Part shown: positions 8,199 to 22,657 of the stretch, one piece after another
How positions within the stretch are numbered: the stretch's first letter is position 1
Layout of the letters: the number at the start of each line of letters is the position of its first letter
Assembly (NCBI GenBank): GCA_963727715.1
Contig: CAVSGX010000007.1
Coordinates: 36,688-100,687, forward strand
Direction of reading: 5' to 3'
Source: an uncultured bacterium
GTDB lineage: Bacteria; Patescibacteriota; Minisyncoccia; Phycocordibacterales; DATDWN01
DNA: 64,000 nt
Notes under the pieces: model-generated
What the model was told of the DNA's origin: nothing
What the model saw: only the letters and a program-made list of their open reading frames with translations
Database searches by the model: none
Program-made: the position numbers and the translations under genes

Positions 8199-8306
8199 AT
8201 TGATCTAATTTCTAATTAACCTAAACAAATTCCAATGACCAATTTGGTGGTTAGGGTTTTGTTATTATTTAGAAATTAGTATAATTAGGTCAATTAAAAA
8301 TTAATT
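8199..8306. repeat. AT-rich palindromic intergenic repeat, family 1 copy A (upstream of cysS)
   Basis: Shares the ctaatttctaa, ccaatgaccaa and tagaaattag...aattaggtcaattaaaaatt blocks with the copies at 19036, 20617 and 22517. Confidence 0.7.
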
Positions 8307-9741
8307 ATGGAGTATATACTTTCACAACACACTAACCGGAAAGAAAGATAAATTTTCACCTATTAATGACAATTTTGTGGGTATTTATTCCTGTGGACCG
8401 ACGGTTTACTGGAATCAGCACATCGGACATATGTACGCTTATGTGCAGTGGGATTGTCTTGTCCGCTCGCTCAATTATTTCGGTTACAAAACAAAATGGG
8501 TAATGAATTTGACCGATGTTGGTCATCTGACTTCCGACGAAGACCTGGGCGTTGATAAAATGGAAAAAGGGGCCGAGCGCGAGGGTTTATCTGTCTGGCA
8601 AATCGCCGACAAGTATATTGCCCAATTTCGCGATAGCTTGGAACTCTTAAACATTCACGAACCGGATGTTTTGTGCCGAGCTACCGAGCACATTCCGGAA
8701 CAAATAGAACTGATTGGAAAAATTGAAAAAAACGGTTTTGCTTATAAAACTAAAACCGGTTTGGTTTTTGACACCGAAAAATTTCCGGCCTACGCCGATT
8801 TCGCCCATTTGCATCTTGAAGATCAGAACGCCGGCAGTCGCGTCAGCGTTGATCCGAAAAAGAAAAAGCCGTGGGATTTTTTGCTTTGGATTACAAACCA
8901 GCCGAATCATATTATGAAATGGCCTTCTCCGTGGGGTGTTGGCTTCCCCGGCTGGCACATTGAATGCACGGCTATGTCGGTCAAATATCTCGGCGAAAAT
9001 TTTGACATTCACACCGGTGGCAAGGAGCACATTCCGGTGCATCACACCAATGAAGTGGCGCAGGCCTTCGGCGCTTTCGGGCATCAGACGGCCAATTTTT
9101 GGTTGCACAATGAGTGGCTTCTTTTTGACGGACAAAAAGTCAGCAAGTCGCTTGGCAATTCCATTTTGGTTTCCGACCTTGTCGCCCGCGGTTTTGACCC
9201 GCTATCACTCCGCTATCTCATAATGACCACGCACTACCGCACCGGTTTGAATTTCACATGGGAGAGTCTAACCGGCGCACAAACGGCATTAAAAAGATTA
9301 AGAAGTATTGTGCGTCACATGAGAGAAGATATTCAAATGAAAAATAGCGGTTACAAACCACATGATTCCATCTTACAAGAAAAAAAAGAAATTTTTAAAA
9401 GTTTTATAGGTGATGATCTTGGTATGCCACAAGCTTTAGCATTTGTGTGGGAATTAATACAAAATACCAAAGTCCACGAAACTGAAGCATATGAGTTAAT
9501 TAAAGATTTTGATAAAGTGCTTGGACTAAAATTGATAGAAGAAAATTTAAAAATGATACCGGAAAATATACAGAAACTAGCAAGAAAGATGAATAAAGCA
9601 CGTTTTTTTGATAAAGATTTTGAAAAAAGCGATAAAATACGTGAGGAAATAAAATCTTTTGGATTTGAGGTTAAAAATCTTGAAAATGGGGTTTATGTTG
9701 GGGGGAAAGATTATTACAACCAAATTTTTCCATTCCAATAA
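8307..9741 (+). CDS. cysS: Cysteine--tRNA ligase (apparent 1-nt frameshift right after the ATG)
   Basis: HIGH (NQHIGHM) and KMSKS (KVSKSLGN) motifs. The conserved N-terminal residues [17 protein letters not shown] are encoded upstream of the track start 8377 but in frame +1 relative to ATG 8307, so there is an indel near 8310 or a non-canonical start. Confidence 0.85.
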
Positions 9742-9823
9742 ATATAATCTCCCCAGCTTTTCCACTTATTTTGCACTTTTTGGCAAGTGGCGGAGAAATT
9801 TTCCGATGTGATACAATCCTGAT

Positions 9824-20757: not shown

Positions 20758-22512
20758 GTGAACATCGAATCTTTTCGCAAATTGTTTCAAAAAGAATGGC
20801 ATCTGCCATTTCACCACAAGATGACAAAAGTTGTCAGCTCTTTTTCCTTGACCGAAAAAATTATTTTTTATTTTTTTGTCGGCCTTTTTACGCTGTCCGC
20901 TTTGTTACTTCTTTGGCAAGTTAATAAATTTTTCCTAGTGCAAGTGCCGGATTATGGCGGAAGCTTCAGCGAGGGTGTGGTCGGCTCAGCCCGTTTTGTC
21001 AATCCGCTCCTTGCCGTTTCTGATCCGGATCGCGATTTGACTGAGCTGGTTTATTCTGGACTTTTACGAGCCACGGCGGATGGAGGGCTCACACCGGATT
21101 TGGCTGAAAGTTACAGCATTTCTCCGGACGGCTTAACTTACACATTTGTCATCAGAAAAAATGCCAAGTTCCAAGATGGCGCGCTCGTCACCGCCGATGA
21201 TGTTGTCTTTACCATCCAAAAAGCTCAAGACCCAACCCTGCAAAGCCCACGTAAAACAAACTGGGACGGCGTGACGGTCAAAAAGATTGGTGATCGAACG
21301 GTGCAATTTGTTTTAAAACAACCTTATTCCCCTTTCATTCAAAACGCCACTCTGGGAATTTTGCCGGAACATATTTGGAAATCGGCTTCCATTGATGAAT
21401 TTCCGTTCAGTGAGTGGAATATCAAAGCCGTCGGTTCCGGACCTTACAAAATAGATTCAGTTGTATACACTTCCGGTGGATTGCCATCAGAATATCACCT
21501 TTCCGCCTGGAGCGGTTTTGCTCTTGGTCGACCTTTCATTTCCAACATCATCATCAAGCTTTATCCTGATCAAAAAAGTTTGATTTCGGCTTACAATGAT
21601 GGTAGTATTGATAGTGTTCAAGGTTTGTCGGCTCAAGAACTGTCCGAATTAAAAATCTCCGATGGACAAAAGATTATTGCTCCTCTGCCGAGAGTTTTCG
21701 GAGTATTTTTTAACCAAAATCAAGCCCCCGTTCTGGTCAATCCGGAAGTCAGACAAGCTCTAGAGATGGCCACGGGCAAACAGATTATTGTTGATCAGGT
21801 GCTTGGCGGATATGGTCAAGTTGTAGATAGCCCCATCCCACCGAAAGAAATTTCAACAAAACCAAATGGCGGATTTGACCAGGTGGCAGCCGACGCCAAG
21901 GCTATTGCTCTTTTGACTTCTCACGGCTGGAAACAAAACACTGATGGAATTTTTCAAAAGAAAACCGGCAAAACAACCCAGACTTTAGCTTTCTCTATTT
22001 CCACATCAGACGCGCCTGATTTGAAAGCTGCGGCCAATCTTTTACAACAGCAATGGCAAAAAATCGGCGTAGCTGTGACAGTCAAGATATTTGAAATAAA
22101 CGATTTGAACCAAAATATCATCCGTCCTCGTAAATATGATGTATTGCTCTTCGGTGAAGTGGTCAGCGAAAATGCGGACTTGTATCCATTTTGGCATTCT
22201 TCAGAGCGACTCGACCCCGGACTCAATGTGGCAATGTATACTAACCTCAAAGTCGACAAAATATTGGAAAATTTGAGACAAACAATCAACCCGACCGATC
22301 AAGAAAATTTATATCAAAACTTCGAAACACAAATCGCTACCGACAGACCAGCCATTTTTCTTTACTCCCCTTATTTTATTTACATCACCCCGAAAAAAAT
22401 ACAAAACATAAAAACGGGAACACTCACCACTCCAGCCCAAAGATTTAGCGATGTCTACAGGTGGTATATTGAAACAAATGAAGTTTGGAAAATATTTACT
22501 AAAAACTATTAA
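20758..22512 (+). CDS. ABC transporter substrate-binding protein, family 5 (peptide/nickel, OppA/DppA-like)
   Basis: SBP_bac_5-type sequence (LAESYSISPDGLTYTFVIRKNAKFQDGALVTADDVVFT). N-terminal signal/TM. GTG start in the track; the true start may be the Met at ~20818. Confidence 0.8.
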   Translation: MNIESFRKLFQKEWHLPFHHKMTKVVSSFSLTEKIIFYFFVGLFTLSALLLLWQVNKFFLVQVPDYGGSFSEGVVGSARFVNPLLAVSDPDRDLTELVYSGLLRATADGGLTPDLAESYSISPDGLTYTFVIRKNAKFQDGALVTADDVVFTIQKAQDPTLQSPRKTNWDGVTVKKIGDRTVQFVLKQPYSPFIQNATLGILPEHIWKSASIDEFPFSEWNIKAVGSGPYKIDSVVYTSGGLPSEYHLSAWSGFALGRPFISNIIIKLYPDQKSLISAYNDGSIDSVQGLSAQELSELKISDGQKIIAPLPRVFGVFFNQNQAPVLVNPEVRQALEMATGKQIIVDQVLGGYGQVVDSPIPPKEISTKPNGGFDQVAADAKAIALLTSHGWKQNTDGIFQKKTGKTTQTLAFSISTSDAPDLKAAANLLQQQWQKIGVAVTVKIFEINDLNQNIIRPRKYDVLLFGEVVSENADLYPFWHSSERLDPGLNVAMYTNLKVDKILENLRQTINPTDQENLYQNFETQIATDRPAIFLYSPYFIYITPKKIQNIKTGTLTTPAQRFSDVYRWYIETNEVWKIFTKNY

Positions 22513-22516
22513 AAAC

Positions 22517-22657
22517 AATTAATCTAATTTCTAATTATTCTAATTAATCTAAATAATAACTAAACCCCAATGACCAATAAGTTTCTATTATCATTTTGGG
22601 AATTTAGACATTGGGATTTATTTAGAGATTAAAATAATTAGGTCAATTAGAAATTTT
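22517..22657. repeat. AT-rich palindromic intergenic repeat, family 1 copy D (upstream of rnj)
   Basis: Begins aattaatctaatttctaattattctaatt like copy C. Contains ccccaatgaccaa...cattgggatttatttagagattaaaataattaggtcaattagaaatt. Confidence 0.75.

Follow-up and report, generated by a model that had tools for sequence, protein, structure and literature searches.

Palindromic elements in operon spacers of a Patescibacteriota contig probably belong to an S23p-associated insertion family spread through the candidate phyla radiation

We analyzed a 64,000-nucleotide stretch of an uncultured Patescibacteriota genome (contig CAVSGX010000007.1 of assembly GCA_963727715.1, positions 36,688 to 100,687; hereafter the window), in which four AT-rich palindromes lie directly upstream of cysS, groEL, the gene of an oligopeptide substrate-binding protein (SBP) and the gene of RNase J. 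The four copies are insertions, not conserved regulatory DNA, and they belong to a large family dispersed over many lineages of the candidate phyla radiation (CPR). We think it probable that they are non-autonomous members of an S23p-associated palindromic insertion element spread through the CPR, lacking its open reading frame (ORF) and resembling MITEs (miniature transposable elements with inverted repeats). The closest known system is the S23p-encoding intervening sequence (IVS) of 23S rRNA genes, as found in Coxiella burnetii, Leptospira, Xanthomonas and Brucella (PMC4990558).

Four related palindromes fill spacers between co-directional genes

Copy A (8197..8302, plus strand, 106 bp) lies in the spacer between corA (stop 8192-8194) and cysS. 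Copy B (19039..19171, minus strand, 133 bp) is in the interior of the groES-groEL operon, between the groES stop (19183-19185) and the groEL ATG (19023-19025), both on the minus strand. Copy C (20618..20739, plus strand, 122 bp) separates secG (stop 20612-20614) from the SBP_bac_5 gene (GTG 20758), and copy D (22517..22655, plus strand, 139 bp) separates SBP_bac_5 (stop 22510-22512) from the RNase J gene (ATG 22661). Bounds were set from the terminal AATT, giving lengths of 106-139 bp; each element starts 3-11 nt past the upstream stop and ends 4-18 nt ahead of the downstream start. Pfam assigned the flanking proteins as CorA/CysS, Cpn10/Cpn60, SecG/SBP_bac_5 and SBP_bac_5/RNase J, with all four spacers co-directional (tail-to-head), and none of copies A-D contains an ORF. 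An earlier reading made from the sequence alone had proposed four AT-rich palindromes at these places, one of them within the groES-groEL operon, and we could confirm the positions, the flanking genes and the operon-internal copy.

The same reading listed blocks shared by the copies, and these recur far above chance. Allowing up to three mismatches, the 21-mer TAATTAGGTYAATTARAAATT has 7 matches in the window against 0.01 expected, and the other two shared blocks have 8 against 1.85 and 11 against 1.43. Strong block matches are confined to the four spacers, with none in the other 49 kb of the window. A repeat search sorted the copies into two families, one of left halves (D1) and one of right halves (D2), and a four-way alignment gave 69% mean column identity with long invariant runs. 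Copies C and D, together with the end of B, were also present in L118, an independent short-read assembly of the same organism whose contig breaks inside B. The recovery of C and D there rules out an assembly artefact.

The copies are imperfect palindromes, and each folds into a single long hairpin with at least 40 pairs, its inverted arms giving ungapped matches of 22-58 nt at 74-87% complementarity. The arm is an array of short units, with AATTAGGTY (9 nt) and AATTAGA (7 nt) on the outside and ATTGGGA/ATTGGTC-like units further in; the opposite arm carries the same units in inverse order, the whole being bounded by AATT. The left arm of copy A, for instance, consists of CTAATT units and ccaATGACCAA, while its right arm ends in TAATTAGGTCAATTAAAAATT. 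Across the wider family described below, unit spacing is either 9 nt (AATTAGGTT/C; 88 cases) or 7 nt (AATTAGA).

RNA folding had been proposed as a check and gave long hairpins in all four copies, with energies of -29 to -44 kcal/mol, z-scores of -4.75 to -7.75 and 0/200 shuffles as good. The individual values were -29 kcal/mol (z -4.75) for copy A, -31.6 kcal/mol (z -4.96) for B, -43.7 kcal/mol (z -7.75) for C and -35.4 kcal/mol (z -5.04) for D. Copy C is the best palindrome of the four; its arms had been described as near-exact reverse complements over ~45 nt, which overstates a match of 76% ungapped complementarity over 45 nt. The copies had further been given one common orientation relative to the downstream gene. 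The better-conserved arm, on which alone this call depends, does face the downstream start in 4/4 copies (in copy B the strong arm points toward groEL, on the minus strand), but the family consensus is itself palindromic. The inner ATGACCAA block is reversed in B and C relative to the other copies, and a 4/4 agreement does not reach significance (two-sided p = 0.125).

Orthologous spacers of syntenic relatives lack the elements

To judge from homologues of its RNase J, the organism belongs to the Paceibacteria/Zambryskibacteria-like Parcubacteria; no near-identical RNase J is on record, and an exact look-up of the window SecG returned no record. For comparison we used five contigs of relatives (L119, L121, L123, L124 and L125; 82 kb in total) with 82-90% RNase J identity, which keep the gene order groEL-groES / secG-SBP-RNase J. 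The groES-groEL spacer, 157 nt long in the window, measures 32 nt in L119, 36 nt in L121 and 5 nt in L125, and L124 does not cover it. The SBP-RNase J spacer, 148 nt in the window, is 11 nt in L121, 20 nt in L124 and 12 nt in L125; in L119 and L123 it holds a different palindrome. Between secG and the SBP gene the spacer (78 nt in L121, 89 nt in L125) is without arm sequence, and a hidden Markov model of the arms found no match in the 82 kb of the five relatives. A search for empty sites, which the sequence-only reading had called for, thus found them in syntenic relatives for B, C and D, as insertion polymorphism.

The palindromes in the SBP-RNase J spacer of L119 (8160-8330) and L123 (2125-2290) have ATTTTGGAG...CTCCAAAAT arms and a GC-rich core, and they occupy the spacer that copy D fills in the window. 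The window itself carries a second, unrelated palindrome family at 41737-41925, with AT-rich arms AATTCCAAAATTACAACAAAAATATTTTTTGGAG / CTCCAAAAAATATTTTTTGTTGTAATTTTGGATT around a GC-rich core. The L119 and L123 elements appear to belong to it by the shared ATTTTGGAG...CTCCAAAAT arm motif and the GC-rich core. The presence of this second family in both the relatives' spacer and the window indicates that spacers of this lineage were repeatedly hit by palindromic insertions. Other intergenic inverted repeats of the window (48399-48541, 34767-34838 and 26063-26216) have arms of 22-32 nt with 84-91% complementarity and fall outside the family studied here.

The family extends over many CPR lineages

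The search for further copies in related CPR genomes was made by scanning the exact 21-mer TAATTAGGTYAATTARAAATT in one genome per species; the locus statistics given here refer to the matches listed. The scan showed a large, dispersed family, with at least 117 stretches in ~85 assemblies, nearly all of Patescibacteria and from more than 15 named lineages. The labels include Roizmanbacteria, Amesbacteria, Levybacteria, Saccharibacteria, WWE3, Peribacteria, Doudnabacteria, Zambryskibacteria, Staskawiczbacteria and Nealsonbacteria, as well as Yanofskybacteria, Falkowbacteria, Magasanikbacteria, Jacksonbacteria, Portnoybacteria, Liptonbacteria and generic Patescibacteria. A few loci carry the assembly labels Gammaproteobacteria, Chlamydiota, Melioribacteraceae, Bdellovibrionales or Pseudomonadales. 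By chance about one match would be expected in the scanned collection (an estimate that assumes uniform base composition). Among viral contigs there was one match in 2.9 million, which argues that the element is not phage-borne.

Almost all listed instances (127/129) are intergenic. Flanking genes are co-directional in 86 instances, in which the motif points to a gene start in 38 and to a gene end in 48; another 17 instances lie in divergent and 10 in convergent spacers. Start codons and stop codons occur within ~20 nt of the motif with about the same frequency, and in some instances the motif itself provides the stop; the gap to start codons varies from 1 to 21 nt. The preference for promoter-proximal positions suggested from the four window copies would look no different from mere insertion into spacers that, in so compact a genome, are very short. 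In 78/123 unique instances a partner arm was present within 230 nt, and the elements so delimited measure 80-230 bp.

Between window copies and those of distant CPR lineages, identity is 75-81%. Copies B and D share 79% identity, and the other window pairs rank 13-40. Apart from B and D, copies within one genome are no closer to each other than copies across lineages, which indicates that the family consensus is nearly constant across the superphylum. At gathering thresholds, Rfam found only tRNAs in the whole window; at E-value thresholds it gave, for 19000-22800, only weak matches to plant and animal microRNA precursors, reflecting the long hairpin. No published description of this palindrome family was found in the searchable literature, which is itself incomplete.

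In six loci of other CPR genomes (L001, L020, L041, L072, L077 and L067) a nested GC-rich hairpin (e.g., cctgcccgc...gcgggcagg or gatcaaccccgattcaatcggggtcaattgg) lies inside or beside the arms. These hairpins look like a further small palindromic insertion within the element.

Longer elements with the same arms enclose an S23p gene

In at least 10 loci the same arms enclose a gene of ~120 codons for S23p, a protein of PF05635 ('23S rRNA-intervening sequence protein' in Pfam) and TIGR02436 ('four helix bundle protein'), with PDB 2RLD as the nearest structure. The locus in L040 is an example, running aaATTAACCTAATTAACCTAATTTCTAATTGATCTAAAAA-ATGACCAATGAA, then the ORF, then ATTGGGTATTTTTTAGGTTAATTAGGTCAATTAGAAATT. 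A jackhmmer search identified 13 S23p ORFs in the 117 listed loci, most of them bracketed by arms, and when the 956 ORFs of these loci were clustered, S23p was the most recurrent family (10 loci; the next best 6). The start codon of S23p is the ATG of the cccaATGACCAA block, which is still present in the short copies. In an alignment with four S23p-bearing elements (alignment A2), the window copies match ~65-75 nt of the left end and ~45-50 nt of the right end, with a gap of ~340 nt where the ORF lies. To judge from these alignments, the short copies derive from, or share an origin with, the S23p-bearing elements.

The S23p ORF reads in the direction of the upstream host gene in 11/11 cases and of the downstream gene in 11/12, which suggests that it rides on host transcription. 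Divergent S23p variants (L045 and L108) have different arm units, ttccaaa/tttggaa; distinct arms in these variants fit co-evolution of protein and arms and also fit simple shared descent. Homologues of S23p form at least 7,498 clusters. The best 120 of these are 71-83% identical to the query; few of them name a source (Levybacteria, Daviesbacteria or Patescibacteria), and many sit on very short contigs, with many S23p contigs at <2 kb. The repeats break short-read CPR assemblies, as seen both in these short contigs and in L118, which ends in copy B. No rRNA signature motif was present in any of the loci, and none of the sampled copies is therefore a true rRNA IVS.

One S23p element of the Levybacteria ATP-synthase operon, at 2459-2958 of L127 and the same in L128-L136, carries an arm upstream of the ORF and, downstream of it, a whole short palindrome made of a left-type and a right-type arm, three arms in all.

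Host-function alternatives

We regard it as unlikely that the palindromes serve the host at the RNA level, as an mRNA counterpart of the rRNA IVS at which an RNase III cut uncouples the stability or translation of neighboring cistrons (e.g., groES from groEL). This reading partly overlaps with that of an insertion element, because cleavage could occur without benefit to the host. RNase III excises rRNA IVSs that carry this ORF family, cutting inside the stems (PMC4990558), the S23p-bearing elements are always sense to the host operon, and the four window copies lie in co-directional spacers and form hairpins of 40 or more pairs, beyond those of shuffled sequences. However, in 37 co-directional copies the sense and antisense strands fold equally well (19 vs 18, Wilcoxon p = 0.48), so that no G-U bias points to selection on the transcribed strand. 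The two arms of one copy pair only marginally better with each other than with arms of different copies (-36.0 vs -33.6 kcal/mol), without copy-specific compensation. These two null tests suggest that palindromy is a property of the consensus, that is, of two inverted arrays of recognition units, and is not kept per copy for folding. The 17 divergent and 10 convergent contexts also speak against an RNA-level role, as do the sites that are empty in relatives.

The sequence-only reading had offered, beside MITEs, a portable cis-regulatory module whose conserved end would act on the downstream gene as a promoter (with -10-like TAnAAT hexamers), as an UP element or as the operator of a dimeric regulator. 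Such a module now appears improbable. The better-conserved arm does end 4-18 nt ahead of the downstream start in 4/4 window copies, and copy D has one 9/12 promoter match toward RNase J. Many genes of the genome appear with a -10-like box 6-8 nt before the ATG and no Shine-Dalgarno (SD) sequence, and AT-rich element ends could therefore act as promoters by accident. Against this, the elements are missing at the orthologous sites of five relatives with the same gene order, the motif faces gene starts and gene ends alike (38 vs 48, with 10 convergent), and its distance to the ATG is not fixed. A consensus scan found no consistent -35/-10 pair aimed downstream in copies A-C; the sequence TAGAAAT is without either A2 or T6 of a -10 hexamer; and each arm repeats units of 7-9 nt, where an operator would be a single dyad. 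A sigma-70 promoter with a -35/-10 pair at 16-18 nt spacing, in every copy and conserved at orthologous sites, was not found. Elements of this kind upstream of housekeeping genes can be mistaken for regulatory DNA.

Canonical promoters do exist in the region, upstream of groES, as do GC-rich T-tailed terminators at 20316-20338 and 12178-12199. An intrinsic terminator was rejected as an identity for the elements: 0/23 terminator-like sites fall in an element, copy B is inside groES-groEL, and 17 instances are in divergent spacers.

A DNA-level host signal selected copy by copy, either binding-site arrays of a nucleoid or segregation protein or an uptake sequence for DNA, CPR-wide and set in inverted pairs, is more improbable still. 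It would suit an identical 21-nt non-coding motif in many CPR lineages, copies no more alike within a genome than between phyla, and a palindrome that is symmetric at the DNA level. But the elements are intergenic (127/129) and sparse (4 in 64 kb, all within 15 kb), whereas uptake sequences such as the Neisseria DNA uptake sequence (DUS) and the Haemophilus uptake signal sequence (USS) are dense and also occur inside genes. The elements are also missing from 82 kb of close relatives and are physically tied to a specific small ORF. Chance likeness of AT-rich, low-complexity spacers, or an assembly artefact, deserves practically no credence: the spacers are indeed AT-rich and made of short repeated units and groEL shows assembly indel problems, but the motif counts exceed every shuffle, copies C and D stand in an independent assembly, and the ~85 assemblies come from many laboratories.

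Comparison with known systems

The rRNA IVSs and their S23p ORFs have been known since ~1990, with their nature, spread and protein role left open (PMC4990558). The IVS of Coxiella has been portrayed as selfish, with inverted repeats at its termini, heptamer repeats ahead of the ATG of its S23p ORF, a weak SD and excision by RNase III, and it has been proposed that the ORF serves mobility (PMC4990558). ORFs of 23S_rRNA_IVP have been found in insertions within CPR rRNA genes (PMC11270868). Like the rRNA IVS, the full-length relatives of our copies encode PF05635/TIGR02436 and are bracketed by complementary ends that form a long stem. Short tandem repeats of 7-9 nt precede the ORF start in both (GACAGAT heptamers in Coxiella, CTAATT units here), the ORF lacks a good SD and is always sense to the host transcript, and the distribution is sporadic, as it is for IVSs, which are regarded as selfish. 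The window copies have the stable stem of complementary ends (z -4.75 to -7.75). Unlike the rRNA IVS, the elements are flanked by protein-coding genes and lie neither in helix 25 or 45 of 23S rRNA nor elsewhere in a 23S or 16S rRNA gene. The window copies have lost the ORF, with no PF05635 ORF in their loops, and the arms are long unit arrays with a 21-nt end conserved across the superphylum.

Bacterial palindromes that resemble MITEs include the Correia elements of Neisseria, ERIC/IRU of enterobacteria, RPE of Rickettsia and RUP/BOX of pneumococci. Our elements share with Correia, ERIC, RPE, RUP and BOX a size of 100-150 bp, imperfect palindromy, multiple copies in transcribed spacers, presence/absence differences and hairpin transcripts. 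Those families are not known beyond a single genus or family each, with an insertion sequence (IS) transposase as partner wherever one is known. In contrast, the only linked gene here encodes a four-helix-bundle protein with no known catalytic fold, and the family spans many candidate phyla with no clear target-site duplication. An element of the Correia/ERIC type was ruled out by sequence.

Repetitive extragenic palindromes (REPs) and REPINs are short palindromes associated with a flanked RAYT transposase proposed to move them in trans (PMC3116915). The likeness lies in short palindromes dispersed over spacers and a single linked gene flanked by the repeats; the difference is that REPs are ~20-40 bp and GC-rich, with RAYT an IS200/IS605-type Y1 transposase, whereas the present elements are AT-rich unit arrays. 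A REP/BIME-RAYT system (BIME, bacterial interspersed mosaic element) was rejected, the elements being AT-rich and 106-139 bp long, with no RAYT-like cluster among the 956 ORFs of the 117 listed loci. TIGR arrays consist of tandem dual-spacer units with 36-nt tigRNA units, box C/D motifs and a Nop-domain Tas gene (PMC12045711). These too were rejected: the elements are single and dispersed with 7-9-nt units, and no Tas-like family recurs nearby.

A proposed mechanism and the points that weigh against it

The reading of the four copies as ORF-less members of an S23p-associated insertion element accounts for the empty orthologous sites, the dispersed family and the longer ORF-bearing relatives with the same ends, and of the possibilities first raised it is the MITE-like one that these results support. 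The copies are small and non-coding with terminal inverted repeats, and they are multi-copy with insertion polymorphism, as MITEs are. The copies are inserted in AT-rich tail-to-head spacers; the elements would be selfish, with the short copies as non-autonomous passengers. Insertions near start codons may be tolerated in this host because its genome appears to need no SD and the AT-rich element ends resemble native leaders. The unit arrays would be protein-recognition sites, most plausibly for S23p acting in trans, and would not be kept for hairpin stability. By analogy with rRNA intervening sequences, RNase III may cut the hairpin when it is transcribed as part of the host operon.

More tentatively, S23p could be a trans-acting factor that recognizes the arrays of 7/9-nt units and promotes spread or retention of the element. 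On this possible but doubtful extension, rRNA IVSs and spacer elements would form one transposase-free mobile class, exchanged horizontally CPR-wide and leaving ORF-less derivatives.

Several observations weigh against an S23p-associated mobile element. Movement of the family is inferred only from presence/absence, with no known transposase or recombinase linked: the search for a cognate enzyme found no transposase-like or recombinase family recurrent near the elements among the 956 ORFs of the 117 listed loci, and the longer partners with the same ends encode S23p only, where those of a MITE would encode a transposase. A jackhmmer search found no S23p in the 64-kb window, which leaves a trans source in this genome unproven. 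An identical S23p (P0141, Levybacteria) occupies the same site in the ATP-synthase operon in 10/10 contigs listed, from different samples, and it is thus stable and not visibly hopping. AATT stands on both sides of every copy, and a target-site duplication is indistinguishable from a terminal repeat because the tetramer reads the same on both strands and also belongs to the repeat unit. When the termini were lined up, only this ambiguous AATT emerged, and the relatives are too diverged to fix the junctions. Finally, the constancy of the copies would fit a conserved master or horizontal spread, and would also fit purifying selection on each copy, that is, a host function.

The finding extends the S23p IVS type to operon spacers, with ORF-less forms, unit-array arms and an end motif found across the superphylum. 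The same kind of element as the rRNA IVS thus lives in ordinary CPR operon spacers, both with and without its ORF, and an old unexplained protein family, S23p, is tied to a defined and very widely conserved DNA motif. Handles for study are the motif of 7- and 9-nt units, S23p as the one candidate partner protein, whose close homologues number in the thousands, and natural filled and empty sites.

Other features of the window

Two of the genes next to the copies have irregular reading frames. The groEL gene (17364-19025, minus strand) has, relative to two relatives, three single-nt insertions within ~190 nt (18690-18875), which move the frame to +1 and +2 and then restore it to 0. Either the assembly or consensus is in error here or the chaperonin gene is disrupted; in the relatives it is intact, at 550-551 aa. 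Copy A does adjoin cysS, as had been read from the sequence, but the ATG at 8307 and the gene body differ in frame by one base. The conserved N-terminus of CysS begins at 8314, right after an in-frame stop at 8302-8304, with no ATG, GTG or TTG before 8377, which points to an indel error or a non-canonical start codon.

An SD-like motif precedes only 11/62 called genes of the window, and a TAnAAT-like box lies 6-8 nt before the start codon of many (e.g., upstream of 9824, 16657, 48580-49161 and 51603). The pattern suggests that leaderless or SD-independent initiation is widespread in the organism. The window also contains diverged duplicated coding segments, which are probably paralogous genes or internal gene repeats: segments at 36109-36718 and 57646-58243 (70-74% identity, 21.5 kb apart), a three-copy 85-nt segment at 34828/54943/56245, and the pair 61388-61510 and 61818-61941 (88-92% identity, 430 nt apart).

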